From Cyanidioschyzon merolae (lineage: Eukaryota), in assembly GCA_000091205.1 (NCBI GenBank), contig AP006495.2: a stretch of DNA of 64,000 nt; one strand, written 5' to 3'. The notes beneath the pieces were generated by a model. That model did not search any database. It was not told where the DNA came from and saw only the letters and a program-made list of their open reading frames with translations. A program made the translations under genes and the position numbers. This document shows, piece after piece, positions 4,454-45,105 of this stretch (the stretch's first letter is position 1; each line of letters starts with the position of its first letter).

Positions 4454-5287
4454 TAGCGTATAAAGTTGACAAGAGTGCTACAGAGTTCATGGAGCAACAC
4501 CTGCAAAGGGAGGGAGCTCTCCCGGGGCGAGCTCGCTTCGTCGCCCGGCGCTGGCGTCTACCCTGTCGCCAGCTGTGCGCTGATGGGGCAGGTACCCGCA
4601 CTCCCGTAGCGCTAAGCGCTCGGTGTGGCTTTCTAGCTGCTATAAATATCAGAAATGGGAGCAGCCGCTTTGGTACCCGAGCAAAAACGCTCCGATCCTT
4701 CTGTGCACGTGTTGCAACAGAGCCTGTACTTAGCCGTGCCAGGGGGCGCGCGGGCTGCGCATTGCCCGCTGACCCCCAGAGCGAGTCGCAGCCGCTCCTG
4801 CATGTGCCTACTGGTCGAGTGCCGGTTTCGCTGCAGGAATCCAGAACGGTGTGGTGGTAGTTTTGCGCGTCGCTGGTGACAACTGGGTATCTGGGGACGC
4901 TGTCTCGTGTCAACGGTTTGTGCAACATAAAACATTAGTAGAGCAGGAGCGGTCCCAGGAGCCGTACCGAGTTCCCGCACGACCTGGACCCGAGCCGCAG
5001 TGCGAGCTCTTCAGACCGCTACCCGGAGCCCGGGCTACGGATGCCTCGTGTGCATAGCTTGCAGTTGTGGACGCTGCGTATCGGCTGCACGCTCGAGGCG
5101 GTTACCGAAGCCGCACACCGATCCAACCTTCGTTCGACCGGGTGTACCTCGTGCAGTGGCGCTGCCAGCGGACGAGTTACTCGACAGCGAGGCATCGCCC
5201 GCCGGGAACCGTCCCGTCGGTTGCACGCCTCTTGAGCGCCCAATCGCAGGTGCTGGTGAGGCAGTTATTGTTGTCTAGGCTGGCAAT

Positions 5288-7432
5288 ATGGCTCAAACTG
5301 CAACACTGGTCGAGCGAGACCTGCGTTCTCTGCTATGCTCAACGCGAGCAGGTTGCTGCTTTGCTGCCGCCGTGGCACCGGAGCGCCTCCGGCGCCGAGC
5401 TCTAACAGGCGCAGCCGCGCATCCTCCAAGGCGGAGCGGTTACCATCGTGGGTGTCCTTGTGGGGATGTTCGCATGCCTGGACTCCATGCAGGGAAGCAG
5501 GCATTGCTATGGCGATACCAGAGATCACTGCCTCGACGACAGCAGCAGTATTGGGGTCGGCACGCGTGCCGATCTGGCGTGCTGATGTCCATTAGAAGCG
5601 CACTGAGCGAGCAGCAGGCAGCTGCTTCAACGGATCTCCTGATTCTCAGCAACGGCCCCGGCGAGCTTTATACTTGGGTTCGACCGCTCCTCATGCATCT
5701 CGGCGAGGAGTTTCGCATTTCCATCGCGTTGACGCCTTGTCCACACGCTAGCGGTAGAGAAATGGACGCAGTGCTGCGCTTTCCGCATGTGGCACGGGTT
5801 TTGCCACCAGCCCATTTCTGGCGACTGCTCCTCGGAATCGAGTCGCATGGGTTGTGGGAACCGGGCGACTCAAACGCAGGTTCTTCGTCTGCCGACATGG
5901 AAACGTTCTGGCGTCGACAGGGGGTCGTTCTATTTCTTGGCGGTGACCAGTTTTTTGCAGGCCTTATTGCGAGAAGGCTCGGGTACCCATGCGTAGCCTA
6001 TGCTGAATGGGATGCCATGTGGCCCGGATGGATTTCCTGTTATGCAGTGCGGAGGCAAGCGATCCGCCAACGGGCCCGCAGGCACCTGCTTTATCGGCTT
6101 TTTGTGGCTTGGGCATGGATCCTCGGACTCTGGGGGGTCACTCTCCAGCAGCGACGGCGAGCAGTTCCCAGAATCGTGGTGATCGGCGACCTGACAACGG
6201 ATGCAGTTTGGCAGTACGACAATGTTCGGGAAAAAGCGAAGACGCTACGCGATTTGTACGTTGCGGCCTACGCGGAGACGCATCTGGGCGACTCGACCGC
6301 GCACGAGACGAAGCTTAGCCCCCAAAACCAACATTCCAGTGAGGTGCGCTCGACAGCTGCAGCCCATCAGAATCGAGTGCCTCGTACGTCGGTGTTGCAG
6401 GCCGGCTCCTCGCGGGAAAAGCATATTCTCGTTGGCCTGCTACCGGGATCGAAACCGAGCAAGCTGGCAATCATGGTTCCATTCTTGCTGCTGTGCGCGT
6501 ATCATATACACATGCGCGCAATGCGCTTGGGTGTTGGCCCCGTGGTGTTCGTGCTCCCAGTGGCACCGGGCTTGGATACAGCAACAGTACAGCGCTTTGC
6601 GGATCCCGCTCACAACTCAATGTTTCAGTTCATCCCGGGCGCCTCTGCTCATTCGTCGCTCTGCACCAAATTCACAGCTGCAGACGAGCCAAGCGTAGCC
6701 ACGGAACAAAGTAAGCGACCCGCTCCACATGCGCAAGTCGCACAGGCCATGCCCTCAGCGCTGGACCCAGACGAGCGCAATATGGAGGCCGGCCCTGGCC
6801 CGCTGGCCCCGTGCCTGCTTATTGATCGCGTGCACGCCCCAGCAGCGGGTGCAAGCGGCGTAGGACGTCTCGAAGCTAGCGCTGTTCAAGTGCCGATTTT
6901 TTTACACGAAGAATCCCCCGCGTATGCGTTGCTTGCTGCTACAGACATATGCCTGACAACCGTTGGTGCAAATACGGCGGAACTGGCCTCGCTTTGGACG
7001 CCCGCCCTGGTACTCGTTCCCACGCATCGATTGGATGTAATGCGCGCATGGGACGGAATCTTGGGTATTCTGTGTCGTTTGCCTCTGATCGGTACGATCA
7101 TTACGATCCTGACAAACCGCATCATATTGTGGATGTATGCGACTCGCCGCTGGGGCTACTTTGCGCTCCCTAATCGCTGGGCAGGGAACCGCGAACTACT
7201 TCCAGAGCTGGTTGGTAATTTGGATGCTCAGCAAGTTGCGGCCCGGGCGCTCGGCCTGGCACTCGATCAGGATAGGTTGCAGCTCATTCGACATGCGTTA
7301 CGGAACCATGCGCAGCCAAGTGGTGCAGTGCGTCGCCTTGCGGTGCTTGTGCGGCATGCACAACGCACTGCAGCAGTAGCTGCACCGAGAGAGGCAGTTG
7401 CTGATGCACACGACTCGTTGCGTACCGCATGA
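5288..7432 (+). CDS. lipid-A-disaccharide synthase (LpxB, GT19)-related protein, cyanobacterial-type
   Basis: 714-aa ORF from the ATG at 5288. The conserved core begins near residue 117 (LLILSNGPGELYTW) and contains an LLPGSKPSKL motif matching the LpxB LLPGSR box. The first ~110 aa are Arg/Ala/Ser-rich and look like a targeting peptide. The alternative start MSIRSALSE lies at about 5585. Confidence 0.5.
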   Translation: MAQTATLVERDLRSLLCSTRAGCCFAAAVAPERLRRRALTGAAAHPPRRSGYHRGCPCGDVRMPGLHAGKQALLWRYQRSLPRRQQQYWGRHACRSGVLMSIRSALSEQQAAASTDLLILSNGPGELYTWVRPLLMHLGEEFRISIALTPCPHASGREMDAVLRFPHVARVLPPAHFWRLLLGIESHGLWEPGDSNAGSSSADMETFWRRQGVVLFLGGDQFFAGLIARRLGYPCVAYAEWDAMWPGWISCYAVRRQAIRQRARRHLLYRLFVAWAWILGLWGVTLQQRRRAVPRIVVIGDLTTDAVWQYDNVREKAKTLRDLYVAAYAETHLGDSTAHETKLSPQNQHSSEVRSTAAAHQNRVPRTSVLQAGSSREKHILVGLLPGSKPSKLAIMVPFLLLCAYHIHMRAMRLGVGPVVFVLPVAPGLDTATVQRFADPAHNSMFQFIPGASAHSSLCTKFTAADEPSVATEQSKRPAPHAQVAQAMPSALDPDERNMEAGPGPLAPCLLIDRVHAPAAGASGVGRLEASAVQVPIFLHEESPAYALLAATDICLTTVGANTAELASLWTPALVLVPTHRLDVMRAWDGILGILCRLPLIGTIITILTNRIILWMYATRRWGYFALPNRWAGNRELLPELVGNLDAQQVAARALGLALDQDRLQLIRHALRNHAQPSGAVRRLAVLVRHAQRTAAVAAPREAVADAHDSLRTA

Positions 7433-8933
7433 TCCAGGGAAGCACTGCAACAACTGCAGCGTGAGAAGGGAAAGCCGCGGATCTACGCAACAACCAACGC
7501 ACTGCATCCTACCAAAGTTCACCATGACGGCTTCTTCGTTGACAGAACACCACCTTCGACGCTCCCGCGCCGGCCGCAGAGGCTCGAAAACAACGCGCTC
7601 CTGACGTATCCATGCCCAGGGCCGACGTTCCCGCGCAACGCACGCATATCGCCAGTGCGTGTCACTGCGCCTCGTAGATGCGTGTCGGATCGGTGCTGGC
7701 TGCTGCGTACCCGCAGTGAGGCACCGCCTGGCTGACGTGATCATCCGTGGACGGTTTAAGGCCAGGTACCGGCTACGAAGCCGTCGTCGCGACTCTTCTG
7801 GTGCGGCACGACGGTTCTGGTGTACCGATAAACTTCCTGTGTGCTGTCCGGGAACCAGTGATACGTGTGTGGATCGAAAAGTGTCCCAGGTATGAAAATT
7901 ATATTTTCTTTTCTGTTGACGGGCGACGACAATTGCTAAGAACTGTGTTTATACGAAATTCTGTGGATCGAAATGTAGCGGAACACTGGTGCACGTCGTG
8001 CGGCAGCCGGAGGTGCCGCCTACGTGTCCAAGCTTGGGTCAGTTTTTTTACTTGACAAACGTATCGTCGTGTCGAGAAAAGAAACCTGGTTCCAATGCGT
8101 TCGATTGAGGTACTAGTCAATCACACAGTACCCAGATCTGACGAAAGTTTTCTTTTCAGCTTCAAAGCGACAGCTCCAAGCTCTCTTCACACTAGCTCGC
8201 ACTAGCCGCAGTGGCCACTCGCGCAACTTGACGCGCCTTCCGACCGCTTGAGGTCACTCAGCGTGCGAAACCGCGGGTTCGCTCGCGTCCCTGGAGACGG
8301 CGTTTTCTCCTTGCCGGTTTTCGTAGCCGCGCTCGATGATGCGCTTGGGCGTGACTGCTTCTGCGCGGACCACGTCGGCTGCACCAGCGACAGAAAGAAC
8401 GCTACTAGGAGTCCGTACAGCCACTGGAAGAGCTTGCCAGTGGCGTGCAGCGGGTTCGCCACTAACGAGCGCCAGCCGCGCACAACCTGTCCGTCTTTGC
8501 GTACGTACATAAGCGTTTAGAAACTAGATGCCGTTGTGTCCAAGTGAGTACAAGTCCCGTATACGCTGCGTCTTGCGCTACGTGAGCTAAACGAAACGTT
8601 GCGGAAGAACGTCGCCAACGAACAATCGCGCAGTAAGGGTGCGCTCCGGATTGCACCCGAAAAATGCCCAACGGCAGCGGCCTCGAGCGGAGCACCGATC
8701 GCCATGCAGCAGCCTGCGGACGTTTGCCAGCGCGATGCGTGCGCGGTGGCGGCGCTGCAGCCGCCATCATCGGTCGCATACCTGGGACACGTTTCTCGCT
8801 AGAAATGGATCCTGTCGAAATAGAAACGCGCGCTACGATCGTGGCGTTTACCGTCCGTGCAGGCAGAGCGCGGAAGTAGCCGGTGCGTGTGGTTGTGTGT
8901 GTCCGAGTCGAAAGGCGCACGCTGCCGCGATAA

Positions 8934-16747: not shown

Positions 16748-17659
16748 ATGGGTAAACGCGTCGCTGACGCCGTTCATGGCTCATTTACCCCGTTCAATCT
16801 TCTGTGCCTTTGCATTCTGGCTTTCGCGGGTTGCTTCACGCCTGCTATTGCGGTAACGACGTTTCCCGGAGCCGGCCAAGTCGTTCAGGCTGGCGAGAGG
16901 CGGCTCGCTCAGCTCGCGCTGAAGGCAACCGACTCGATGCACCCGTGCTGGACGCGCCTCTATGAGCAGTTTGCATACGATACGGAGACGGAGATCGGAT
17001 GCCGTGGTGGTGTCGAACGCCCAGCTATGCTGATGCTAACCTGCCACCTTTCGAGCTCAGGGCGCCTGTCGAACGCGTCGCAACCGCTCCAGCAACTCTA
17101 TACAGATTTCATCAAGTTGACGCGCTACCTCAACACGACGCAATCATCACTGCAGGCAACAAATGAAGCGAACCGCGTCAGTCGCGCTTCCCCGCTATCA
17201 TCGGAGCGCTTCGAGTTTGACGTGTCGGGTATTGCGGCAGAGCTGAGCCCTCATGAGTTCCAGCTGTACTCGCTGTTCTTCGCCCACTGCGCCTCGATCT
17301 GTTACTTCCTGCTGGCATATAGACATACCGCTCAGGTGAAAGAGGCCGTTCAACAGATGCAGGCGGACGCAACGGCTGCAATGCATGCCATGCAGGTGGC
17401 TCTCGAGAGGCAGCCGCCCGGTCACCCGGTACGCGAAGTTTTTCTCGGCTCGCCGCTTCTTTTCGTGGTGACGATCGGATGGTTACTGCACATTCGTTTC
17501 GGTCGCTGGATGCTATTAGTTCTCATTGCTATTTATGCTGCAGGTGGATGGGTCGCGATTGCCGGTATGCCGGTACCGCTCGTGTTCATCCGATTGCTGT
17601 TTTGGCTGCGCCGTCGCTTCGACGAGCCGCTCGCGTTAGCACATTACGCTGGAAGTTGA
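16748..17659 (+). CDS. hypothetical membrane protein (signal peptide plus C-terminal TM helices)
   Basis: 303-aa ORF from an ATG. It has an N-terminal hydrophobic signal (FNLLCLCILAFAGCF) and two or three C-terminal TM helices (LLFVVTIGWLLHI, MLLVLIAIYAAGGWVAIAGMPVPLVFI). No family was recognised. Confidence 0.3.
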   Translation: MGKRVADAVHGSFTPFNLLCLCILAFAGCFTPAIAVTTFPGAGQVVQAGERRLAQLALKATDSMHPCWTRLYEQFAYDTETEIGCRGGVERPAMLMLTCHLSSSGRLSNASQPLQQLYTDFIKLTRYLNTTQSSLQATNEANRVSRASPLSSERFEFDVSGIAAELSPHEFQLYSLFFAHCASICYFLLAYRHTAQVKEAVQQMQADATAAMHAMQVALERQPPGHPVREVFLGSPLLFVVTIGWLLHIRFGRWMLLVLIAIYAAGGWVAIAGMPVPLVFIRLLFWLRRRFDEPLALAHYAGS

Positions 17660-22586: not shown

Positions 22587-22676
22587 ATGCGGTGTTGTGA
22601 GCTGGGACCGAATACCGGGGCTGATCAACCAGAGCGCACCGAGCCTCCGTCCGAGACCAGCGAAAGTGATGAGGTC

Positions 22677-22708
<32 letters not shown>

Positions 22709-25700
22709 TGGGGATCTCGCCGACCGTCTAACGCGCAGCGTAGACGAACAGAGTCGATCCGCCGGGTGCGCGGCTAGCGGCGCCCAGGACAAGCCGCAGA
22801 CATTGTGCTCGGTGCAAGACGTCACCGCGTCCACTGCACAACGTTTTGACGTGCGCCAAAGCAAGGAGTGCGGCGAAGCTGTCCAGAACTTCAGCGAGCT
22901 TGGCGTGGGGAAGCAGCAAGAGCACGCTGATCCACGAACGGTCTGGCTTCCAGGGTCACCTGAGCCGACCGCGTTTCCCCAAGTCCGACTGGTTGGCAAC
23001 TGGGACCTACCGATGGTGCCCATGAACGAAGAACCCAGCGAATACACATCCTCTGTCAGGGAAGGCGCTGTGCCTGACCTGTGTGAAGAGGGTTCGGTTA
23101 CACGTGCGTCCAGAATAGGAGCTTGCGTGGTGCAAGCCGCGAGCCATTCCCGAGAAGCAGTCGCAGGCGACGCGCAGTCTACCGATGACCAGGAGAGCGA
23201 GATGCACACCGCAAGCGCGTCGACGACGACTGCTAGCTCGTTGAAGCAGTGCACAGCAGACGGGAAAAGCGGCGAATCCACCCAGAGGCTGCATACAGAC
23301 TCGAGAGCGTCCTCTGGCATCGCGTTTGTGCCCTACAAAAGTGAAGAAGAGGTACTGGCGGATTTAGAACTCGAGGATTCGATGGACGATCATACCTACA
23401 CACTGCTTGATCTTAGAAAATCCTTGCCAGAGCAGATGCAGCGCCGGTCCTACGCTTGCCCAACGGTGCGAGACGGCAGCAGGTCAGATCGTCACCTGGA
23501 TAGGCGGGCATTCCGTGGCGAAAACGAAGAAGAACACGACGACGATAGCTCCAGCGGACCAGATCGGGATGTCTGGACGCCACCGGCTACGCCTTTGGAT
23601 AGCGAGATGCCGCTCATCGTGTGTCCACCGGAGCCCGTCTGGCCATGCGAGGAAGATCTGCGGGATCTCACACCCGCTGAACTTGCACGCTCTACGGATG
23701 TATTCATGCAGGTTGCGGAGGAGCTGCATTTCCACTGGCGTGTGCTCAAGCTCGGTACCGATCCGGTAACGCCAACCCCTCTGCTTGAGCGTCTTAAGTT
23801 TCTCTGTATCGTATCGAGCAACCTCGATGAGTACTTTTCCAAAAACATGTACGATGTGTCAAAAACAATGCGCCCACTCTACGAACGGATTTCAGCTGCG
23901 ATACGCGACATCACTGCTCAGCAGGAGTCCTGTTTCACGGACGTTATTCTACCAGCGCTCGCTCGATATGATATGCGCATTCTACGTTACGCAGATCTCA
24001 GTATGACGCAGCGAGCGCAGATGAACGCGTTCTTCCATGCTCGTCTGTTTCCACTGCTTACCCCGCTGACCCTGGATCCGACGCATCCGTTTCCGCTTCT
24101 GCGCAGTCACTCGCTGTACCTGGCGGTGCTGCTGAAAGGCGCTCAGCTGATGCCGCCTTCGGAACACGACGCCCACGACGGCGACGAAAGTCCGATTCCG
24201 GCGCTGAGTCCACCGAACGCCTCCCTGGACCGCTCGATAGCCACTGCGCTGCCCTCTGATACCCACGTCGCCTGGGTCCGAGTCCCGTCGTCGTGTAGTC
24301 GCTTCATTACCGTGGACAATGAGAAGCGTTTTTTGCCGGTCGAGGAGATTATCATCCAGAACTTGGATGCGCTTTTCGAAAACGTGCGCGTCATTGCAGC
24401 GTACCCGTTCCGCGTGACCCGTAATACCAAACTTGAACTGGACAAGATCGAACTCAACGAAAGTGAGGATTTTTTGAAAATTGTCGAAGAGAACCTATAT
24501 AGTCGACAGCGACGAGCCGCAGTGCGGCTGGAGGTTTCGCGCGATATGCCCGACGTGCTGACAACGCTGTTGCGCGAGCAACTGAACCTGGAACCCTTGG
24601 CTATGTATCGCTCAAGGGCTCCGATTATTGGCCTCAACGACTGTTTCATGCTGACGAACGTCAACATCCCTGCTTTGCGATACCCCCCGTGGCGTTTCAA
24701 GACGCACTCTATTCTGGCCGGCTACAAATACGGCGTCCAGAGCGGGCACACGGCCCATATGTTTGAGCTCATTCGACACAACGACGTGCTGTTCTCGTTT
24801 CCGATTCATTCTTTTGATGAGACCACTCTGCGTTTCCTCGAAAGCGCAGTTCGGGACCCCGCAGTGCGCCTGATGAAAATGGTGCTGTATCGATGTGGGA
24901 ACAATTCACCTGTCGTGAAGCTGCTCATGGAGGCGGCTCGGCGTGGCATTGATGTCAATGTGCTGGTTGAACTCAAAGCTTCCTTTGATGAGGATCAGAA
25001 TGTCCTCTACGCTCGCATGCTCCAAGAGGCGGGCTGTAACGTCGCGTACGGGGTCAAGGGCTACAAGACCCACGCGAAACTTATTCTCGTGGTTCGCGAG
25101 GAGAATCATGCCCTGGTCTCGTATTGTAACGTCGCCACTGGCAACTACAATGCAACGACGGCGAAAATCTATACGGATTTTTCGCTGTTCACCAGTCGGG
25201 AGGATATCTGCGCCGATGTCACCGATTTGTTCAATGTGTTTACGGGGTATAGTGCGAAGCGATCGTTTCGCAAACTCCTCGTTTCACCGGTGAACATGCG
25301 CGATCGTTTCCTCGAACTCATTCAGCGCGAGATAGATAACGCTCGTGCGGGCTACCCGGCGAGAATCATCTGCCAGTGCAACGGTATCACTGAGGTGCTT
25401 ATCACCCAGCGACTCTACGAGGCGAGCATGGCCGGCGTTCGTGTCGACCTCATCGTACGCGGTATCTGCCGTGTTCGACCCGGCATCACCGGCATCAGCG
25501 AGAATATTCGCGTGGTGAGCATCCTCGGGCGTTTTTTGCTTCACGCTCGAGTGTTTTATTTTGCGAACGCCCGTGAGGCTAAACCCGAGTACTATATCGG
25601 GTCTGCGGACTGGCGTACACGAAATTTGCTCGCTCGTCTGGAGGCTGTCGCCCCGGTTGAAGACAAGTACCTGCAGCAGACACTCTGGCGACACCTGAAT

Positions 25701-26495
25701 CGGCTGTTGAGTGATTCTGTGAACGGTTGGGAGATGCTCCCCGACGGTCGCTACGTGAAAGGCGAAAGCGAAGCGCTCGGGCATCTCCGAGATGCGATCA
25801 TGGCTGCGCGTCGGGAGGCCGAAGCCGAGGCCCTCAAACCGCCAGCACAAGCACCGGTGTCGGCGGACGAGGTGACACCGGGCTCGTCGGAGGCCGAACA
25901 CTTGCCCGTCGTGCGTAAAGCTGGTTGTGTTCCGGTTCGGTTGAACCGGCGACACAACACGCGTCGAGACGATATTGGCACGCGGTACGAGGTGCTTCTG
26001 ATCACCTCTACCTCGTCGTCGTTTATTGCGCGGCATCCGAATGATTCGCGCGTCTCGGAAATACCGGACGGTGGCATCACGTGGGTCTTCCCCAAAGGCA
26101 GCATGGCGTACGGTGAAGATGGCCGCAGTGCTGCGCTGCGCGAGGCCCTCGAGGAGGCCGGAGTCAGCGGCGAACTCGGGCCGCTCCTCAGTGTCAGCAC
26201 GAAACGCAAACGGAGAACGGTGGTCATGACCGAGTTTTATTTGCTGCATGTGAAACAGCAGCTGTCCCAATGGGGCGAAAGCAGCCAGCGACACCGGCGC
26301 TGGTTTACACTAGACGAGGCAGCGAATGTGATCACCAAAGAGTATCTCTTGGAAGCGCTGATGAAGGCTCGTCAAGCGCTCGGCGAAACGCCTACCAGCC
26401 AACCGACATCGCCACCAGCACCACCAGCACCACCACCAGCAGCAGCAGCAGCAGCAGCATTCGAATCGACTACCAATGGCGGAAAAAAGCACTGA
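22587..26495 (+). CDS. polyphosphate kinase 1 (PPK1) fused to a C-terminal DIPP/Ddp1-type Nudix hydrolase domain
   Basis: 1302-aa uninterrupted ORF whose ATG immediately follows a stop. About 22587-23650 is a low-complexity N-terminal extension. PPK1 motifs include PLLERLKFLCIVSSNLDEYF (N domain) and YGVKGYKTHAKLILVVREENHALVSYCNVATGNYNATTAKIYTDFSLFTSRED (the autophosphorylated-His region). The C2 domain has LGRFLLHARVFYFANAREAKPEYYIGSADWRTRNL, ending near 25810. After a linker, a Nudix domain spans about 25980-26370. It has YEVLLITSTSSSFIARHPNDSRVSEIPDGG and the Nudix box GSMAYGEDGRSAALREALEEAGVSGELGPLL. The following RKRRTVVMTEFYLLHV ... RHRRWFTLDEAANVI aligns with NUDT3/DIPP (RKHRTYVYVLIVTE ... 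RKREWFKIEDAIKVL). The tail is Pro/Ala-rich. The true start may be a downstream Met. Confidence 0.8.
22686..22716. repeat. (CAG)n microsatellite
   Basis: The tract cagcagcagtagcagcagcagcagcagcagc sits inside the PPK1 N-terminal extension and encodes poly-Ala/Ser in frame. Confidence 0.8.
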
Positions 26496-26990: not shown

Positions 26991-27224
26991 GCGCACGATC
27001 AGCACTCCGTGATCCATAGGTACATATTCATACATCTTTGGCACTGTTCACCTGGTATCGCTATCAGCGCGCACGATCAGCACTCCGTGATCCATAGGTA
27101 CATATTCATACATCTTTGGCACTGTTCACCTGGTATTCCTATCAGCGCGCACGATCAGCACTCCTTGATCCATAGGTACATATTCATACATCTTTGGCAC
27201 TGTTCATCCATCTCGCTGTGCGCG
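26991..27224. repeat. tandem repeat, 78-bp unit x3
   Basis: The unit gcgcacgatcagcactccgtgatccataggtacatattcatacatctttggcactgttcacctggtatcgctatca recurs at 26991, 27069 and 27147 with single-base differences. It lies between the convergent 3' ends of the PPK1-Nudix and OSCA-like genes. Confidence 0.85.
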
Positions 27225-27255: not shown

Positions 27256-30039
27256 TCAGGGCGGCGCTGCACGTACCAGCTGCAGTGCGTAGGTTCCGAA
27301 CAGCACGAAACGCTGCCGTATCCGATGCGTAAAACCTACAAGACGATCAGGATGCCACCGCAGCTCAAGCAAAAGTCCCCATAAGTACGCCACGCTCAAG
27401 AGAAGCACCAACAGGAGCCCGGTATTCCCGTATATCCATGACAAGAGCACCAGAAGAACGATCGCAGTGGTCAGCACCACAGCGCCGGCGTTGGTCGCGG
27501 TCCGCGCCATTCGCGTATCCGTTGGATGCGGTGGATGCACTTTGCTCAAATTGTACCGATCTGTAAAATACTTGGTGACAAGATACAGTCCAATAAAAAG
27601 CCACAAAAACGGTACGAATGGACCGAGGAAGAACCCAATCGCGAGCACTTTGATGACCTGGGCGTAGGCGTACGGGTAGTCAAACGGTGCAGCCTGGCCG
27701 GCTTGGGCGAGCACCAGTGGCGTGTAAGCGTGCTGGCGACGCCAAAGAAAGCGTAGCCAGTGCATAGGGTGTAAAAGCGCCAAGCTATTCCCCGTAAGCG
27801 CCAGCTGGATGAGAAAGTTCGTGTAGAAAAAGGCATTATCGCCACGGAAGATCCGCTCGACCACTTGAAGCACTCGTTGGGGTGTCTTTCCGCTCGCCGC
27901 CCGGCGATAAGCCAATAATACAACCTCAGCGGCAGTGTTGATAGCGAGCGACGGTAGAACCAGCGTGTTCAGCAGATAATATGCGATGCTCTTTCGCAGA
28001 ATCGATGCCTCTTCTGCAGAGCGCGTCATATGACTCTCGTGCTTCGCCAATTGTCGCAGCATCCACGGGACGGCACTGTTGATCAACATCAGCAGACCAA
28101 CGGGTAAGTACGAGAATACAAAGGCCGTTGGCCAGGAGCTTCGTCCCGTTCGCATGCCAGTCGCCTCGTCGATCCGGATCAGCGTTCGACGAATCTGCTT
28201 GGACCATGGACTCGAAGCGCGCAGGACATGTTGTATGGCACCATGCATCTCAAAGCGCCTGGAAAGTGTCTTGAAACAGCTCAACATATCGATTCCTCTG
28301 ATGTGAGGATTCCCTACAACACTACCAACTGGACCGTGTTGATGATCGCTGGACTGCCTCCAAAACAGACACCAACGGCTTGCGTTGGGCGCTGTAAACG
28401 CTTGCAGCGAGCTGAGCGGCGCATTCGTCGTTGCGCTCGCCAGCACCTGAAGAACAGACAGAATCGCTACGGGCGAGCTCAGAAACAAGAGACCAAGTGC
28501 GAAGAGCACATTCAATACGACTTCACGTAGCCATCGCTCCCAAGCCGGTATGCCCAGATGGGACCACTGCACGTCCGATAAAGATTCAACAGCCTCGGCG
28601 TGCAGTGGGCGAAAAAACGCCTCGTTCACGTTCTCGTTAGAGGAGGCATCTCGCGTGGGAATCGCCTCCCTTAATTGCAGGCCAGAAGTCGCACTGTCCG
28701 CTACCAGAGGCTGTTGGAATGCATCGTCTACGGAAGCGCACAAGCGACGGCACGCGCTCATGAGCCGTGGCAGCAACCGCCGCTGACGACGATGCCGTTC
28801 GCAATCGACAAGACACTGGTGGAACCACCAAGGCTCCCGGAAAGCGACCAGAATCCAGCCAGTAAAGCGCTCGGCATGCTCGCTGCCCGCAGTCCGTCCA
28901 TCATCATCATCATCATGCTGGTCAAGTTGGGCGAGCTGCTGTGCTAGCCGCGCGAGCTCAGCTTGTCGCCAGAGCTCGCGCTGTTCCAGTTGTGCCGACG
29001 GTGATGTGGTCCACAACCGCAACCCCAGAGGTATGTGGATTTCTTCACTAGGCAGCGAGGCCAAGTACTCGTAGAAGGCTTGCAGGTAGCGACGCCGGCG
29101 CTGGCGCTCTGCAGCTACCAGTTGTCCACGGTAGATGAGCTCTACTTTCTGAATCGATAACTGCGGGTACCTTCTGTAGAGCGCTGCTTCAATACGAGCT
29201 GCATCCCAGCCTTGACGAGGCCAGCCGCCGAGCAACAAATACAGCGGCCTCTGCTTTCGCCTCGAGGCCTGCCCTGCTTCCATCGAGCTCGTTCGTGCAA
29301 GGCTATCGTAGCGGGCCGGTAGATGACTCGCTGCATCCGGTGGCGTCGAACGTTCGTCGGCTGGAGACTCGACAGCACCCACGGAATCGTGCCGCATCGT
29401 TGGACTCAGCGCGAGTCGCCACAGGACAATGGTGGTTACACACGCCATCCAGACTGGAAGCTGCATGAGTACAGCGGCTCGGGCACCAGACTCGAAGCCG
29501 GCAGACAATGTGTAGGCGGTGTGCATTCTTTCCCACCAGGTGCGCCAACCAGAAGCACTTGACGTACTCCTGGTGAACCATAGCATCAATGGCAGTTGGA
29601 CAACAAGCCCATACAGACTAAGCACGCCCGCCAACAAGAGCGCAATCCAGACAAAACTCATGTACAGGTTGCGCTCTAGCGAGATATCCGCCGCAGGGCT
29701 TCTCGATGAGACTGTTGGAGTAGCAGCAGCAGCAGCAGCAGTGATAATCGTAGATGGAACATCTTTCTTGAGCTGCTCGACCGGCACACCTGTTAGCGTT
29801 TGCTGAACCCGTGCCGGTGCTCCCGCAAGCGCATCATCAATGGTATCATCCGCATCTTCCGCTACGATGCGCTGGAAATTGATCAGAATGCGCCGTTGCT
29901 CCGGTGTTAGGTGCGATGCGGGATTACCAACTGCTGCAAATAGCAACAGATTCAGCCCCGCGGTGATTAGGTTGATGCGAATGATCCATCCGACATTGCC
30001 GGTGATCACGAGACCTTCCACGATTTTTGGATCCTCCAT
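27256..30039 (-). CDS. OSCA/CSC1/TMEM63-family hyperosmolality-gated cation channel (DUF221/RSN1_7TM)
   Basis: The track ORF begins at a TTG, and the first ATG gives MEDPKIVEGLVITGNVGWIIRINLITAGLNLLLFAAV (TM1 at the extreme N-terminus, as in OSCA). The C-terminal 7TM region matches family consensus (SIAYYLLNTLVLPSL; FDYPYAYAQVIKVLAIGFFLGPFVPFLWLFIGLYLVTKYFTDRYNLSKVH versus consensus FhyGteYAq ... YlVyRhQiinVY). It contains an in-frame (GAT)6 poly-Asp run at 28899-28916. Confidence 0.6.
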   Translation of the reverse strand: MEDPKIVEGLVITGNVGWIIRINLITAGLNLLLFAAVGNPASHLTPEQRRILINFQRIVAEDADDTIDDALAGAPARVQQTLTGVPVEQLKKDVPSTIITAAAAAATPTVSSRSPAADISLERNLYMSFVWIALLLAGVLSLYGLVVQLPLMLWFTRSTSSASGWRTWWERMHTAYTLSAGFESGARAAVLMQLPVWMACVTTIVLWRLALSPTMRHDSVGAVESPADERSTPPDAASHLPARYDSLARTSSMEAGQASRRKQRPLYLLLGGWPRQGWDAARIEAALYRRYPQLSIQKVELIYRGQLVAAERQRRRRYLQAFYEYLASLPSEEIHIPLGLRLWTTSPSAQLEQRELWRQAELARLAQQLAQLDQHDDDDDGRTAGSEHAERFTGWILVAFREPWWFHQCLVDCERHRRQRRLLPRLMSACRRLCASVDDAFQQPLVADSATSGLQLREAIPTRDASSNENVNEAFFRPLHAEAVESLSDVQWSHLGIPAWERWLREVVLNVLFALGLLFLSSPVAILSVLQVLASATTNAPLSSLQAFTAPNASRWCLFWRQSSDHQHGPVGSVVGNPHIRGIDMLSCFKTLSRRFEMHGAIQHVLRASSPWSKQIRRTLIRIDEATGMRTGRSSWPTAFVFSYLPVGLLMLINSAVPWMLRQLAKHESHMTRSAEEASILRKSIAYYLLNTLVLPSLAINTAAEVVLLAYRRAASGKTPQRVLQVVERIFRGDNAFFYTNFLIQLALTGNSLALLHPMHWLRFLWRRQHAYTPLVLAQAGQAAPFDYPYAYAQVIKVLAIGFFLGPFVPFLWLFIGLYLVTKYFTDRYNLSKVHPPHPTDTRMARTATNAGAVVLTTAIVLLVLLSWIYGNTGLLLVLLLSVAYLWGLLLELRWHPDRLVGFTHRIRQRFVLFGTYALQLVRAAPP

Positions 30040-30195
30040 GGGTGTTCTCCTAGGCGCGAAGCAGGACAAATCGTATGACTGGTGTTGCGCGGGTTTTGTA
30101 CGGCGATCCAGGCGTTTCGGAAATGCGGCGGACTGCCCCAAGCGCCTCGGCAAGAGCAACGCACTTATGATGCTCCCGTTCTACGTTCGAGACGA

Positions 30196-36410: not shown

Positions 36411-38072
36411 CTAACAGTGTGGACGAACCTGCAGCTCGTGCTGGAGCTCCGGCAGCCACCACTCCCGATCTGGATGCATCAGACGCTCCACGACAAAGCT
36501 CCAGTTTCGAGGTTGCGCCCAGCGCTCGCCGAAAAATGCACGCGGCATTGCGTGTCGACTTCGCCTCCACATGGGACGATTTGCCTTGCTAATGCGCTGT
36601 GGAGATGAACGCCCACTCCCAGGGACAGCACTGTTTTCGCCCCGCAGGCAAACATATTCCGGCCAGTACAGCGCGCCCGGAGGCTCGCCGACCGTCCGCA
36701 GTTGCCAAGGCGCCTGAACGAGGCTGCACGGCAAAGGCGCCGCCTCCGGATCGCTGTAATTTGATGGAAACTGCGGTGGTACCAGAACAGTGCTGTGTAC
36801 GGGCATCAGTCGAGCGACAAGCTGCGAGAAAGCGCTGCGAGACCCCACGAAGATATCTGCGCTCGTCATCTCGATCAGGGCGTCAATAGTAGTCATGTCC
36901 AGATGCTGCGTGATCTTGGCACCAGGAAAGCGCTCATACAACCACTGCTTAAGCCGGCTTGGATAACCATCCATGTCCACCAGCGGTGACTCGGAGAAAA
37001 TGCGAATACGAAGGAGGTGCGGAGCGCAAAAGACGGGTCCAGCGCGGTGGCAGTGAGCCTTGAATGCCGCGTCTGCAGCCGCCACATACCATGAATCAGG
37101 GAGGTTTCGTCGCAAGCCAGCTTCCACGTAGGCATTCGGCTTGTACATGGGATACCGCGGAACCTGGTCACCCCGTCGGACGTGAAGTGCGATGCTTACG
37201 GTACGCGAAAGTTCCGCAAAGTCGTCTGCATTCTGGTTTCGACGGCTTTCCATGAAGACTGCTCGCTGGCGCTGGAAGACGCTGCGCCACCACGAGGCCG
37301 TACACGCCCAGGAAGACGCCAACGCTCCACCAGGACTGAAAACAGCCTCGAACTGGAAAAAGAGTGCTCGTGTGCGGAGTGTGGGTTGGCGCTCCACAGC
37401 ACTCCGCCAATGTTGCAGGAGCGCGAGCAGTTCTCGCTCGTCTCTGTGCTTCAGAGTCGATGCAGTGATGCGAATTGCTATATGATCTGATGGGACTGCA
37501 GTTCGTGGCGTTGTGTAAAGCGACAAATTGAAAAACGCTTCAGCTTTGTCGCCGATACCGTGTCCAAGGCCGCGCATCGCCTCTGGGTCGTAGACGTGAC
37601 GCAAACCGAGCCGCTGAGCCAAATGGACGATACGGTTCATGGCGGAGATTGTATGTCCGAGTCCAGCCCTGGAGCAACATCCAGTAAGCGCGATGTAATC
37701 ATCTACGGAGCGCTTACATCCCAGCGGTACTCGAGCGCACCCGTCGAACTGCCTTGGCAATCGCAGGTCAGACGAGACGTTCCGAAAGGCGCGGGGCAGC
37801 CCATGGAGGACGCTCTGTGGCAACAGAAGCAGCAGGAGCCACAGCGACAGTAGCAGGAGTAGCAACTCTGCGACGCGGCGGTGTCTTCCTTGAAAGGAAC
37901 TGAACCAGAGAGCGTGTAGAACAGGTTGCAGGGTGCTTCCGAGGCCGCGGCTGCTGGACAGGTAGCGCCGCATCCGGCGGACCGCCTGTCTCGCGTCAGA
38001 GAGTGCTGTTGAGGTCGTAAGGTGCCGGCTCGTGCCATGGAAAACTGCGAGTTTTGGCCTCAACGCCTGCAT
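36411..38072 (-). CDS. putative type-II membrane glycosyltransferase, fucosyltransferase-like (HVRRGD motif)
   Basis: The track ORF starts at a TTG (about 38132), and the first ATG is at about 38072. It has a poly-Leu signal-anchor (LLLLLLSLWLLLLLL). The catalytic domain has HVRRGDQVPRY (the HxRRGD motif of GT11/GT23/O-FucT fucosyltransferases) and a C-terminal VGSRSAFSQLVARL motif. The exact start is uncertain. Confidence 0.45.
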   Translation of the reverse strand: MQALRPKLAVFHGTSRHLTTSTALSDARQAVRRMRRYLSSSRGLGSTLQPVLHALWFSSFQGRHRRVAELLLLLLSLWLLLLLLPQSVLHGLPRAFRNVSSDLRLPRQFDGCARVPLGCKRSVDDYIALTGCCSRAGLGHTISAMNRIVHLAQRLGLRHVYDPEAMRGLGHGIGDKAEAFFNLSLYTTPRTAVPSDHIAIRITASTLKHRDERELLALLQHWRSAVERQPTLRTRALFFQFEAVFSPGGALASSWACTASWWRSVFQRQRAVFMESRRNQNADDFAELSRTVSIALHVRRGDQVPRYPMYKPNAYVEAGLRRNLPDSWYVAAADAAFKAHCHRAGPVFCAPHLLRIRIFSESPLVDMDGYPSRLKQWLYERFPGAKITQHLDMTTIDALIEMTSADIFVGSRSAFSQLVARLMPVHSTVLVPPQFPSNYSDPEAAPLPCSLVQAPWQLRTVGEPPGALYWPEYVCLRGENSAVPGSGRSSPQRISKANRPMWRRSRHAMPRAFFGERWAQPRNWSFVVERLMHPDREWWLPELQHELQVRPHC

Positions 38073-39099
38073 AAGGCTTTCGTGGCCACCTTGGGACAAG
38101 TGCTCCAAGACATCGACGAACGCTGCGGTCAACGGCGATACGCTTGTTCATCTGTCAGATACTCGGCACTGGGTGCAACGCAATTCGCGTTTGTGCCAGA
38201 ACGATGGCCCGCTGACCGCACCTATCGACAGCAACCAAAGAATAAGTGTTTTATCGATTACTTGCGGGCAAGAAGACTGGTCTATCGGGGGCCGGAACTC
38301 AGAGGACTATGCACACCTGCATGGTGCCGGTTGTGACACGGTTTGCACGACGCAGCGAGAACCTGATTACATGGCTGAATATGATGATTCCAGAAAACTA
38401 GTGGTTTTATTCGAAGCAGGCCGGGCGTTAGGTGTATGTCAGGGCTAAACGCGAGAAACAGCGGTGTGGCTTTGGCCGGAGACCTCGCACCGCTGGGCAG
38501 CATCTGCCAGCGTCCTCCATACCACGAGGTCGGCGAATGCCTCAGCTTGTCCATCTACCAAGGAGCACGCGCGAAACCGATACAATTGTTTGGATACTGT
38601 TGGATTACCGCGTTGAATCAGGGATGCCCGAATACACGTTGTCTATTCGCATTCAGGGAAAGATCCGTACCCGTTAGGGTAGCAGCGTCTAAAAGAATGC
38701 GCACGAACGCGGGCCCGAACGGCACCAGGCGAATCGCTGCACTGTAGCTACCGTTGCACTGAGAAGCACGACTCTAAGCGATAAGGTAGGCATGAGTGGA
38801 TATCCAGGTACTGAGGTCTCTTTCGTGATTCGTTGGAAGCACTTTTGCATCCAAGGGATTCTGGTCATAGACATCGAGATCAATTTTGTGAGACCCTTGC
38901 TGTGATGTATAGCGGACTATCGAAATCACGATGCATTATACCGGATAGCAGGTAAACGTATTATATGTATGTTATTTTGTGTTGAGCAGCTCAAGAAGGC
39001 CGGTATTCCTTCTTGAGGTCAGTCATTACACAGTACTCAGTTGGTTGAGGACTACCAAATGAAACAAATATATGCGCTTCGCGCCAAAAGCCGCTATTG

Positions 39100-39810
39100 T
39101 CAACGTGTGCTTGGAGCTCATGGTACAGAAACAACCGTTAACCACTTTACGGAAACCGCAAGCGGCAGTAGCAGCCGCTAGGAGCGTCTCTGTTTCTCAC
39201 CAGCTTGTTCGTGTGGTCCTGAAAACACTGGGAAACAGTCGGAAAAAATGAGACCTAGTTCACGCACGACCATTTTCCACCGAAATCACAACGACAGCGT
39301 TCTTTCAACATCGCCATCGCATAAAGCACAGGGACATCAGTTCTTTTCAGTCGATGGGAATTCCCTGGGACGAAACGATCGGATCGTATACGAGTATTCG
39401 AGGTATTGGGAGCTCGGTGTATGTACGATCGAACTCGATGAGAACGAGGACCTTATCTATTCTAGAAACAGTGGATTCATTTGGCAGCCTCAGTTTCGCG
39501 CGTAGGGAAGGCGCATACCACAGCATTCACTTTGCCGAATCATCGTGGACTGTTTCTTGACGCCTGGCGACATCCCTCTATTGGAAAAAGTGGCCTTGCA
39601 CCATTCCCCTTTTGTTGGAGCTGTTGCCGATTCTATCGACAAAGAGCTGCTTTTCATTCCTCCATAGTCTGTATGTGTCTCACCGATTGAGGGAGTGCTT
39701 CTCATCGCGAAACGTAATGATCGCTCGACCGAGCGAATTCTTTCATTTAACAAAACATTTGCATTGATCAGGGATTCCAGACTGCGTGAATGGATATTGG
39801 CATTCGGCAA
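39100..39810 (+). mobile_element. degenerate Tc1/mariner-like transposase remnant, copy 2 (inverted relative to copy 1)
   Basis: The plus strand encodes SVSVSHQLVRVVLKTLGNSRKK followed by a stop. It then encodes SIRGIGSSVYVRSNSMRTRTLSILETVDSFGSLSF, matching copy 1 at 15400-16110. The opposite strand gives DYGGMKSSSLSIESATAPT, matching YGAYEGMKSSPSLVESAKAQT in copy 1. The copy also contains a GGGAATTCCC palindrome at 39356. Confidence 0.45.
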
Positions 39811-40492
39811 TGCGTCCGTCTTGATGCACCCTGCCTTCAAGCTCCATAACCCTTCCTTCTTCTCGGATATCGTGGTCGTTACGTATATTCTGTCGTGTGC
39901 TGCGTGACTGCCTTGCTACACCCGCAATAAGAGTTATACCACTGGAGCAGATGCAACGCGGAGACAGAACGTCTGTGCCGTACCACTGAGGCTGTCGGCT
40001 CGAGGCGAGGTTCACTAGTCTCGGAATCGGGCCTCGACATCATTCTGGGGGCCTACAACCCGTACAGACAAGACTACTGCCTGCGGAGGCGCGAAGCGAT
40101 ATCCTACGATACTAGAACGACCAGGTCAACGCTCAGAAGGCGCCTACCTGCTTCGAGTCCCAGAATAAATTGCATTGCGGACAAGCTGCTCAGGTGTCAC
40201 GGCAACAGTAGGCCCGGGGAGAGCTTGAAGTATTAGCCCAGCAGATTCGTAAAGTCCGCGGGACCTGTCGCCTGGAAGGTAAACTTTCGACAATATGGAA
40301 ACCTTTTCCCGCTTTTGACGTTTATCATAGAGGAGGAAAGAAACCATTATCTCGTAGCTACCTAATGGTTCATTTCTCTCTCCCGTGCTAAGCTGCGCGA
40401 TGATCGTGCGCGATACAAGTTGACGAGGCCGCGCTCAACGTCTGCCCAGTGTCGTCGATTGTTGGAAAAAGCGTTCTTTGAACGGGTCCGCT

Positions 40493-40521: not shown

Positions 40522-40962
40522 CTGCCTAGACCCGTGTCTTTGTGACCTGATAAAGCACTGCGTGCAGTGTTGGAAACAGCTCAAGCTCGCTCGGTTCGAA
40601 GGAGCGATAGGCTGTGACTGCTGTGCAATTTCGCGACTCGGGCTACCGGACTGGAGTGAGGCCCAAGTCGACGACCGTGCGTGCGCGCTTTTCGGACAGC
40701 GCAGCTGTTTCGGATTCTCCCAGCGCTCTCGCGTGGTGCTCGGGGTGTCAGTCACCGGCGACGTCGCTCACAAACACGCTCTGATCAGCTGACTCGTCAG
40801 GCACTGCATCAAGGAGAGGCAGTCTCGGTTCTGGAGTCTTGAGTGTCGATTTGCTCCACCTACCTTCGCGGACTGGACGGGAGGCACCGTGCATTGTATA
40901 GCGCGGCACCGAACGATAAGCTGACGTTTCCCTTGAGCAAGATTTGGGTGAGACGGCCAAGC

Positions 40963-42660
40963 ATGCCGGCGCTGGCTCGGACAGTGCTTCGCACGGCGTT
41001 GTCGAAGGTTCTCCACCTGCATCGAGAGCGTCCGCTGCAGCACTGCCGCCGTTTCGGCGCACTAACCTCGAAACCGTACGCGTTTCGTGCTCGACCCTGG
41101 GAACTGAAAAGCACCGAATCGATCGATGTATTCGACGGTGTTGGTTCGAACATTCGCATTGATGCGGTTGGTACGGAAGTCCGTCGTATTTTACCGCGCT
41201 TGAACGAGGAGGTGAATGAAGAGTGGATCAGTGACAAGACGCGTTTCGCCTACGACGGCCTGAAACGGCAGCGCTTGACGGTTCCGATGGTGCGGATACA
41301 CACTGGTGAAGCGAACGAACAACTTGTCGGTGTGGACTGGTACAAAGCAAGGGCTATCCTAGTCAACAAGCTGGTGTCGGCCATTCGGGAGGCCGCCACC
41401 CCAGCAACAACTCAGCGATCTGCGTTCGAGGCCCATGCCATTATCGGGCCCTATGCAGATTGCGAAAGCATAGCAGCGCTACGGCGCATCTTTTACAGCA
41501 TGTTTCCTGAGGGTACCGCTTTTGTCCATGTTCAGGGACACGCGAATACGGGTACACCGCCGACGGACTTTCGCTACGCCTACTGTGCGAATACAACGCT
41601 AGCTGGTTTGGAACACGCCGATGTCATCCTTCTGGTGGCAACGAACCCGCGAGTGGAGGCGCCGCTCCTGAATAATCGTATCCGGAAAGCGGTCTTATTT
41701 GGGAATGCTCGAGTTGGCCTGATCGGCTGCCATGCCGACCTAACGTACAATCGTGAACACCTCTGGCATCTCGGGACCAGTCCCGCAACGCTTCTGCGGA
41801 TCGCCCAAGGTCGTCATGCTTTTTGCTCTGTTTTGGCCAAAGCGCAGCGACCGGCGATTATCGTGAGCCAACAGGCGTTCCAGAGACATGACGGGGCGGC
41901 TATTTTTGGCTGCCTCGCAACGTTGGTGGACCACGTCCCGCGACTTGTGCCCCGGGATGGCTCGTGGAATGGCCTGAACGTACTTCACACTGCCGCGAAT
42001 ACCGTTGGGGCGCTCGACCTTGGCTTTGATCATACGCTGAAAGGAAACCGCTGGATTGATCAGTCCGGGGCGCAACAAACCAGCGAACAGCCCTGGGCGC
42101 GTGCCAAGCTGCTCTATCTGCTGGGTGCCGATGATATCGATGGACTCGAGGAGCTCCCCGAGACCTGCTACGTGGTGTATCAGGGGCATCACGGAGACTA
42201 TGGAGCAAGCATCGCTGACCTGATCCTACCCGGTGCTGCGTATACCGAGAAGAACGGCACGTTTGTGAACACAGAGGGTCGTGTCCAGCGCACGGCACGC
42301 GCGTTCCTGCCTCCTGGCCAGGCCAAAGTCGACGCGGAAATTCTCGATGAGCTCTTGGTAGGTCTGGATCACGCTGCCGGATTTTTCGATGCAGCACAGG
42401 AAATGGAATTCCTGGCTCCTCATCTGGGTGTCCAGTATGGTTTACAGGAACCGGATCTCATTAGAACACCAAACACGGGACAGGTGCAGCTAGGCGGTGC
42501 GAAAGCAGAGCGCGCTCGTTCGTTGCCGCTGTCACCCATGCCGTTTGGACCGGTTATTGAGAATTTTTACATGACAGATCCGATTACCAGAGCGAGTGCT
42601 ACGATGGCGAAATGCGTGCGTGTTGCTCGCTATAGTAATTTTGAGGAATCCAGTTCGTAA
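40963..42660 (+). CDS. NADH-ubiquinone oxidoreductase 75-kDa subunit (NDUFS1/Nad11), C-terminal molybdopterin-oxidoreductase-like domain only, with presequence
   Basis: The track ORF begins at a GTG (40843), and the first ATG at 40963 gives MPALARTVLRTALSKVLHLHRERPLQHCRRF (Arg-rich and amphipathic, like a mitochondrial presequence). From GALTSKPYAFRARPWELKSTESIDVFDGVGSNIRIDAVGTEVRRILPRLNEEVNEEWISDKTRFAYDGLKRQRLTVPMV onward it aligns collinearly with human NDUFS1 residues ~240-727. Further matches include LLVATNPRVEAPLLNNRIRK, YQGHHGDYGASIADLILPGAAYTEKNGTFVNTEGRVQRT and FYMTDPITRASATMAKCV. No Fe-S cluster domain is encoded upstream in any frame. Confidence 0.75.
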   Translation: MPALARTVLRTALSKVLHLHRERPLQHCRRFGALTSKPYAFRARPWELKSTESIDVFDGVGSNIRIDAVGTEVRRILPRLNEEVNEEWISDKTRFAYDGLKRQRLTVPMVRIHTGEANEQLVGVDWYKARAILVNKLVSAIREAATPATTQRSAFEAHAIIGPYADCESIAALRRIFYSMFPEGTAFVHVQGHANTGTPPTDFRYAYCANTTLAGLEHADVILLVATNPRVEAPLLNNRIRKAVLFGNARVGLIGCHADLTYNREHLWHLGTSPATLLRIAQGRHAFCSVLAKAQRPAIIVSQQAFQRHDGAAIFGCLATLVDHVPRLVPRDGSWNGLNVLHTAANTVGALDLGFDHTLKGNRWIDQSGAQQTSEQPWARAKLLYLLGADDIDGLEELPETCYVVYQGHHGDYGASIADLILPGAAYTEKNGTFVNTEGRVQRTARAFLPPGQAKVDAEILDELLVGLDHAAGFFDAAQEMEFLAPHLGVQYGLQEPDLIRTPNTGQVQLGGAKAERARSLPLSPMPFGPVIENFYMTDPITRASATMAKCVRVARYSNFEESSS

Positions 42661-44930: not shown

Positions 44931-45105
44931 GAGAGAAAATACGAAACGACCATAACATCCGAGAAGAAGTATGGGTAATGGAACTTGGAGGTAGGCGCTT
45001 CATGATGGACGCTTTCTCGAAAGCCATTATCGATCCCGAGTGCTGGGATCCATGGTCAATGGAAACGTTTTGTCATCCGGAAAAAAATTTGCGCAGCATC
45101 GCGCT
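44931..45105. repeat. dispersed repeat, copy A (~175 bp)
   Basis: The sequence gagagaaaatacgaaacgaccataacatccgagaagaagtatgggtaatggaacttggaggtaggcg ... aacgttttgtcatccggaaaaaaa matches copy B at 49461-49650 at roughly 80% identity in the same orientation. Confidence 0.6.

Follow-up and report, generated by a model that had tools for sequence, protein, structure and literature searches.

The 64,000-nt stretch of contig AP006495.2 analyzed here (assembly GCA_000091205.1, Cyanidioschyzon merolae) contains a gene in which a polyphosphate kinase of the bacterial type (PPK1) is followed, in the same reading frame, by a Nudix hydrolase domain. This stretch is called the window below, and all positions are those of the whole window. 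With a probability of about 0.88, we consider the gene to be a nuclear one, encoding a PPK1 of bacterial origin fused at its C-terminal side to a hydrolase of the DIPP family, and to be the counterpart of the fusion published for C. merolae. The fusion is real, was correctly read in an initial annotation of this DNA, and is already known. It is not new because it is conserved in the cyanidiophytes and was published, with a functional study, for C. merolae in 2024; the window adds one orthologue and not a discovery.

The list of open reading frames (ORFs) of the window showed no internal stop across the 1302 codons. The main features of the gene and of the encoded protein (positions in amino acids, aa) are the following.

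22587..26495, + strand: PPK1-Nudix fusion ORF, ATG start, 1302 aa plus stop (ORF list; alignment of eight orthologues)
23724..23981, + strand: PPK1 N-terminal domain, PP_kinase_N, PF13089, aa 380–465, E 7e-14 (Pfam)
24009..24647, + strand: PPK1 middle or head domain, PP_kinase, PF02503, aa 475–687, E 9e-46 (Pfam)
24759..25256, + strand: PPK1 C-terminal domain 1, PP_kinase_C_1, PF17941, PLD-like, aa 725–890, E 1e-61 (Pfam)
25275..25769, + strand: PPK1 C-terminal domain 2, PP_kinase_C, PF13090, aa 897–1061, E 3e-56 (Pfam)
25773..25898, + strand: inter-domain linker of about 40 aa, aa 1063–1104 (alignment, identity table)
25899..26372, + strand: DIPP-type Nudix hydrolase domain, aa 1105–1262 (sequence search, profile, AlphaFold2 and Foldseek)
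26097–26165, + strand: Nudix box GSMAYGEDGRSAALREALEEAGV, G1171–V1193 (motif location, alignment of eight orthologues)

The PPK1 half is an intact four-domain core with both catalytic histidines. The four PPK1 domains and the NUDIX domain all scored above their Pfam gathering scores, and PLDc_2 matched as well. Among the NCBIfam models, the polyphosphate kinase 1 equivalog TIGR03705 gave 629.8 bits (cutoff 465.85) and NF003921 gave 712 bits (cutoff 701). The first histidine, H829 (codon 25071–25073), lies in domain C1 inside KTHAKLILVVRE/YKTHAKLI and aligns to chain position 434 of 1XDO. The second, H986 (codon 25542–25544), lies in domain C2 inside FLLHARVFYF and aligns to position 591 of the same chain. 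Both were invariant in the eight orthologues. We take these two chain positions to be H435 and H592 of Escherichia coli PPK1, assuming that the initiator methionine is absent from the chain. In the E. coli enzyme H435 is the autophosphorylated residue, which gives the phospho-enzyme, and H592 is the second catalytic histidine. The initial annotation had described a core of four domains (N, head, C1, C2) and two intact histidine regions. The Pfam and TIGR03705 scores bear out the former, and the alignment to H435 and H592 the latter.

The four-domain architecture and both histidines are common to this protein and to bacterial PPK1 (E. coli Ppk, 1XDO/1XDP), and the C1 and C2 regions align well. 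Unlike bacterial PPK1, the window protein has a 350-aa N-terminal extension, an insertion in the head domain and the C-terminal Nudix domain. The head-domain insertion (about 35 aa, aa ~525–560) was lineage-specific in the eight-sequence alignment, the Galdieria proteins being without it. Identity to prokaryotic and metagenomic PPK1s that have no Nudix domain was at best about 40–43%. The PPK1 of Dictyostelium discoideum (DdPPK1) is likewise a bacterial-type enzyme acquired by a eukaryote. It also carries an N-terminal extension, as the window protein does; it is not known to have a Nudix domain. In the tree of Whitehead et al. (PMC3680246), DdPPK1 falls in a eukaryotic PPK1 group separate from the red algal enzymes.

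The Nudix half is predicted from its sequence and a structural model to belong to the DIPP/Ddp1 group, as a divergent member that has kept its catalytic apparatus intact. Pfam placed NUDIX at aa 1159–1245 (E 1e-10). The box fits the consensus GX5EX7REUXEEXGU as G1171-x5-E1177-x7-R1185 E1186 A L E1189 E1190 A G1192 V1193, where the U after RE is an alanine. Residues E1177, R1185, E1186, E1189 and E1190 were invariant in 8/8 orthologues, and G1192 was kept and matches the consensus. In a PDB search with the single sequence, NUDT4 and NUDT3 came first (E 6e-12 to 1e-9), followed by Ddp1 (2e-5) and by diadenosine tetraphosphate (Ap4A) hydrolases (4e-5). With a profile built from five cyanidiophyte Nudix domains, DIPP1/2/3 reached E values of 4e-18 to 1e-16, the Aquifex Ap4A hydrolase 3e-10, Ddp1 8e-8 and NUDT2 8e-7. 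The AlphaFold2 model that was used derived from a 67-sequence alignment and had a mean predicted local distance difference test score (pLDDT) of 89.2 and a predicted TM-score (pTM) of 0.84; an earlier model from five sequences (pLDDT 58) was discarded. Foldseek matched it to many Nudix structures with a probability of 1.00, indicating the alpha/beta/alpha Nudix fold. Ranks 1–16 were all DIPP1, DIPP3, DIPP2 or Ddp1, and Mycobacterium smegmatis MutT1 and hydrolases of diadenosine polyphosphates (ApnA) came next. A DIPP/Ddp1-type domain and not a generic MutT had been claimed, and the order of the profile search and of the first sixteen Foldseek ranks agrees with this. The converse case, a domain nearer to the MutT or ADP-ribose enzymes, did not hold: these, like the decapping enzymes, were far weaker or absent in the profile search.

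Human DIPP1/2/3 (NUDT3, NUDT4, NUDT10/11) and yeast Ddp1 were the best matches in both sequence and fold. The identity of the window domain to the DIPPs was 28–30%. The DIPPs and Ddp1 are stand-alone proteins of about 150–190 aa, whereas the window domain sits within a protein of 1302 aa. Its residues were mapped on human DIPP1 (hDIPP1), the reference sequence of which agrees with PDB sequences over residues 32–130; K18 and R20 lie in the first 31 residues, and their mappings are less certain. The ligand-contact residues considered (K18, R20, S39/S40, R41, R89, R115 and K133) were taken from PMC8064635 and from DIPP1 structures. The following positions were kept.

E57, R65, E66, E69, E70, G72 of hDIPP1: E1177, R1185, E1186, E1189, E1190, G1192, kept (Nudix box)
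R20: K1111, kept, invariant among cyanidiophytes (mapping less certain)
S39: S1141, kept in the Cyanidioschyzon, Cyanidiococcus and Cyanidium sequences
R115, R117: R1235, R1237, kept, invariant
W119: W1239, kept, invariant
K133: K1251, kept, invariant
R89/K90 region: basic cluster K1206–R1210, basic character kept (phmmer alignment)

In addition, W46 (W1166) and the glycines at G75 and G78 were kept. The window domain has in common with the DIPPs and Ddp1 a serine-rich strand (TSTSSS) preceding the active site; among the cyanidiophytes, only the sequences of Cyanidioschyzon, Cyanidiococcus and Cyanidium have retained it. In Ddp1 the phosphates of inositol phosphate, ApnA and polyphosphate (polyP) ligands are clamped by these basic and serine residues, and even the yeast and human enzymes do not share all of these clamp positions (PMC8064635).

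A split of this locus into two neighbouring genes, with the fusion as an artefact of the assembly or of the gene model, is effectively refuted, and we regard its probability as practically nil. Such a reading could invoke the Galdieria locus, which prokaryotic gene callers cut into a 781-aa PPK and a MutT-like ORF of about 310 aa in metagenome contigs. However, the split was confined to Galdieria contigs, and eukaryotic gene models were fused in four Galdieria species. The frame was continuous in the window and in the fused proteins of Cyanidiococcus, Cyanidium and P0002. Several metagenome contigs, independent of one another, likewise had an unbroken frame for versions of 1300–1304 aa, and the linker was kept in frame across the orthologues. 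A fusion protein is also, by its title, the subject of the publication of Yagisawa et al. discussed below. A sequencing error creating the read-through, which had been named as one case that would undo the fusion, was likewise rejected: an artefact of sequencing or gene model is excluded because the same read-through exists in independent metagenome assemblies, and it recurs in the orthologues. The single uninterrupted ORF with both domains, as first described, stands on the ORF list of the window and on the same architecture in the other cyanidiophytes. In the protein homology search the 100% match over 1302 aa was present only in metagenomes of the Joint Genome Institute (JGI; P0001).

In hot-spring metagenomes the two parts of the Galdieria gene were labelled separately, as "polyphosphate kinase" (781 aa) and "MutT/NUDIX" (~310 aa). 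This likely reflects a eukaryotic gene mis-split by prokaryotic gene calling, with introns as the cause. Galdieria genomes are intron-rich.

It had been suggested that other genomes be searched for PPK1 with a C-terminal Nudix domain, and this architecture was found in seven other cyanidiophyte lineages: Cyanidiococcus, Cyanidium, four Galdieria species and the P0002 assembly. These seven aligned relatives share with the window the domain order, PPK1 first and Nudix C-terminal, and the conserved Nudix box. The identity was 88% with Cyanidiococcus yangmingshanensis (counted across the three quarters that are conserved), 70% with Cyanidium caldarium, 48–49% with Galdieria partita, G. phlegrea and G. 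sulphuraria, and 47% with G. yellowstonensis. In the identity matrix the window sequence was sister to the Cyanidiococcus pair P0002/P0137 (83% to each other and about 75% to the window), with Cyanidium beyond this pair and Galdieria further out, which places it in a Cyanidioschyzon-like lineage. Both halves and the in-frame junction were kept across cyanidiophytes that have diverged to about 47% identity. Between the window and Galdieria the identity was 58–59% in the PPK1 core, 38–40% in the Nudix domain and 7–14% in the linker and extension. Both halves are under purifying selection, because their identities are far above those of the linker and the extension.

An exhaustive HMMER search with the Nudix profile covered 1.84 billion representative proteins. 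It returned only two clusters at E<1e-30, both of them cyanidiophyte fusions, and the next match (~1e-27) was a fragment of the Galdieria fusion. Below the fusions came small stand-alone Nudix proteins and bacterial proteins of about 430–540 aa, and among the top 150 matches no other protein exceeded 640 aa or was of the size of PPK1. The named stand-alone relatives were mixed, with eukaryotes (Physarum, the rhizarian Lapot gusevi) and bacteria (an alphaproteobacterial metagenome-assembled genome). A word-indexed search with the Nudix domain alone gave 7 weak matches and missed the fused orthologues themselves, hence it was uninformative. A junction query (PPK C2, linker and Nudix) found only bacterial PPK1 fragments, which neither shows nor excludes fusions outside the cyanidiophytes. 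No Porphyra-type PPK1 was among the best 120 matches of the full-protein search, eukaryotic genome assemblies lying outside the sets searched.

As for the origin of the Nudix domain, its co-transfer with PPK1 from a bacterial operon has no support: of the bacterial PPK1s whose flanks could be used, the closest (P0011) has no Nudix gene beside it, and the nearest stand-alone Nudix relatives are of mixed eukaryotic and bacterial origin. A second bacterial PPK1 (P0009) gave little information on a Nudix neighbour, its 4.1-kb contig ending about 110 bases past the gene. Three of the closest Nudix relatives (P0162, P0166 and P0246) were bacterial proteins of about 430–540 aa, with an N-terminal TIR domain of the CAP12/Pycsar type followed by two DIPP-like Nudix stretches, an arrangement resembling that of defence systems.

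The PPK1 gene of C. merolae is CMM026C. The enzymes of C. merolae and Porphyra were described as one red-algal group, of bacterial origin and acquired by horizontal transfer (Whitehead et al. 2013, PMC3680246). The same work, in which the Nudix domain goes unmentioned, reported a patchy distribution of PPK1 in eukaryotes, in agreement with the rarity stated in the initial annotation. The latter knew of no described equivalent of the fusion; this has to be given up, as "a fusion protein of PPK1 and a Nudix hydrolase" is named as involved in polyP accumulation in C. merolae in the title of Yagisawa et al. (2024, Plant Mol Biol 115:9, PMID 39699696), a work cited in PMC12526157 and PMC12345225. 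Judged by this title, the published protein is a like fusion from a cyanidiophyte red alga. According to a review of 2025, fusion to a DIPP-family Nudix hydrolase is found in most PPK homologues of eukaryotes, and red algae are without genes for VTC-type polymerases, VTC4 included (PMC12526157). In a eukaryotic lineage devoid of VTC4, a horizontally acquired bacterial polyP synthase would then have taken over polyP synthesis, joined to a eukaryote-type hydrolase from a family that degrades polyP and inositol pyrophosphates (PP-InsPs).

We propose the following mode of action, which draws on what is known of the two families. The PPK1 half would use ATP to build polyP, with phospho-His829 as the intermediate, and would be the polyP synthase of a lineage without VTC4. 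The Nudix half would cleave phosphoanhydride bonds, those of polyP (as an endopolyphosphatase), of PP-InsPs or of Ap5A and Ap6A. Ddp1 has polyP endopolyphosphatase activity and its structure with polyP15 is available, DIPP and Ddp1 cleave Ap5A and Ap6A, and pockets of the DIPP type bind inositol hexakisphosphate (InsP6) and PP-InsPs tightly (PMC8064635). When bacterial PPK1 makes polyP in the cytosol, the product is toxic to yeast and plants; yeast requires Ddp1 and Ppx1 to overcome this toxicity. Because of this toxicity, the fused domain could trim or limit the polyP released by a cytosol-facing enzyme of the bacterial type, or could couple its synthesis to PP-InsP levels. The self-contained module for synthesis plus trimming, or for PP-InsP sensing, put forward in the initial annotation is likewise a hypothesis.

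Several features of the Nudix domain weigh against a plain transfer of DIPP function. The mapping on hDIPP1 showed these positions not to be kept.

K18: V1109, not kept (mapping less certain)
G50, G52: K1170, S1172, not kept
G82, F84: S1202, S1204, not kept
H91: not kept

We take G72, G75, G78, G82, F84 and H91 to be signature positions of the DIPPs, in line with mutagenesis work on these enzymes. In the glycine motif following the box, G72, G75 and G78 were kept and G82 was lost, as were F84 and H91. These positions are characteristic of animal DIPPs rather than of the subfamily at large: G78, F84 and H91 were not conserved among the 62 nearest stand-alone homologues either, whereas G82 was a glycine in 46/62. 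The second feature is a loop insertion, which makes the counterpart of R41 ambiguous.

26013..26081, + strand: loop insertion of about 22 aa, aa 1143–1165, from the TSTSSS strand to W1166 (alignments; low-pLDDT block of the model)

The loop was lineage-specific, being shorter in Galdieria and absent from human DIPP1, and it sits elsewhere than the 25-residue insert (the "nose") of yeast Ddp1. Because signature and contact positions of DIPP1 are changed and this loop lies near the serine-rich strand, the substrate preference may differ from that of the animal DIPPs.

The same changes can be read as the mark of a domain that is mainly a ligand sensor, binding PP-InsPs or polyP and regulating PPK1 allosterically in place of the SPX domain of VTC4. 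Red algae are without VTC4, the microalgal homologues of which have in common with yeast VTC4 the SPX phosphate-sensing domain (PMC12526157), and the tight hold of DIPP-type pockets on InsP6 and PP-InsPs would suit such a role. We consider it rather unlikely that sensing is the main function: the five catalytic residues of the box stayed invariant in eight orthologues while the domain diverged to about 40% identity, which is the pattern expected of an active hydrolase, and sensing and hydrolysis can coexist. It is also conceivable, and in our opinion quite improbable, that the domain is a hydrolase of nucleotide polyphosphates or ApnA which clears side products of PPK1 (nucleoside tetraphosphates, Ap5A and Ap6A) and does not act on polyP or PP-InsPs. 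According to the review text, PPK1 is also able to form nucleoside 5'-tetraphosphate; Ap4A/Ap6A hydrolases and MutT1 came next after the DIPPs by sequence and fold, and the DIPPs and Ddp1 themselves cleave Ap5A and Ap6A. The profile search, however, favored the DIPPs by about 7 orders of magnitude, and the basic residues of an open phosphate-clamp pocket (R1235, R1237, K1251 and K1111) were conserved. The serine-rich strand speaks in the same direction, though in the three genera only.

Beyond the hydrolase reading preferred here, a more speculative extension, which we hold as a doubtful one, would make the DIPP-type domain a PP-InsP-responsive control of polyP synthesis. The domain would bind or hydrolyse InsP7 or InsP8 at the enzyme and gate the PPK1 tunnel, being an independently evolved functional analogue of SPX control in algae without SPX-VTC4 and more than a trimmer of polyP. 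Such a control element would be tuned by the 22-aa loop and by the changes at K18, G50 and H91.

The remaining parts of the protein were the following.

22587..23633, + strand: N-terminal extension, aa 1–349, low-complexity (no Pfam match; identity table)
23320..23381, + strand: conserved island 1, FVPYKSEEEVLADLE, inside the extension (protein and DNA alignment with the orthologue of the Cyanidiococcus clade)
23544..23671, + strand: conserved island 2, DDSSSGPDRDVWTPP...IVCPPEPVWPC, running into the PPK1 core (alignments)
26373..26492, + strand: Pro/Ala-rich C-terminal tail, aa 1263–1302, not conserved (repeat scan, identity table)

The extension of about 350 aa and the Pro/Ala-rich tail announced in the initial annotation were both present, and the Pfam scan of the ORF found no match in either. 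They were lineage-specific in length and sequence. With the nearest orthologue, the identity of the extension was 35% versus 90% for the PPK1 core. The frame of the extension was open in the three sequences of the Cyanidioschyzon/Cyanidiococcus clade (3/3, 1246–1302 aa), and the gene models of Cyanidiococcus differed in length, with one of 978 aa and another of 1248 aa. The motif PPEPVWPC was kept in 7/8 aligned cyanidiophyte sequences and was missing from the G. sulphuraria model. The extension, at least in its distal part, is coding, because the DNA differences visible in islands 1 and 2 look mostly third-position. The linker, in frame in all orthologues, showed an identity of 83–86% within the Cyanidioschyzon/Cyanidiococcus clade and of 7–10% to Galdieria.

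Two triplet repeats were present in frame. The first, (GCA)~11 at 22677–22708, encodes poly-Ala, and the second, CAG/CACCAGCAG at 26413–26459, encodes part of the Pro/Ala tail. They probably account for the variants of 1300–1304 aa. These variants of the metagenomes suggest a repeat-length polymorphism in natural populations.

The surroundings of the gene were those of a nuclear chromosome segment, as the predicted proteins indicate. The other long ORFs of the window were of eukaryotic nuclear type and included an eIF2B-epsilon-like protein, an NAD-dependent sugar dehydratase/epimerase, an S1-domain protein, a Nab2-type zinc-finger protein, an RSN1/OSCA-type channel, a WD40 protein, NDUFS1, TCF25 and dyskerin. 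A scan for tRNA genes in the 64-kb window gave none. The GC content was about 56–57% throughout; a local GC of 0.50, against a background of 0.55–0.60, was seen at 38001–40000, upstream of the NDUFS1-like gene (40843–42660).

The locus in GCA_041825655.1 was syntenic, with matching downstream neighbours: an opposite-strand RSN1_7TM gene and then a WD40 gene. In the window, the RSN1_7TM/OSCA-like gene (27256–30159, minus strand) is convergent with the PPK1-Nudix gene; in the relative it lies at 5064–7664 (minus strand) of locus L004. The window ORF measures 967 aa from a TTG start, and the gene called in the relative measures 866 aa. The shorter gene of the relative and the TTG codon make it probable that translation begins at an ATG further downstream. 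The 3' gap between the two convergent genes contains a 78-bp tandem repeat (26991–27206, 2.8 copies, 97% identical), which yields a spurious ORF with a thrice-repeated peptide.

Seven ORFs of 300–714 aa were without a Pfam match at E<=0.001, located at 3212–4453 (−), 5288–7432 (+), 16748–17659 (+), 36411–38132 (−), 44083–45027 (−), 45281–46255 (+) and 46252–47361 (−). Proteins particular to the cyanidiophyte lineage are one possibility; another is that some of the seven are spurious ORFs in GC-rich DNA.

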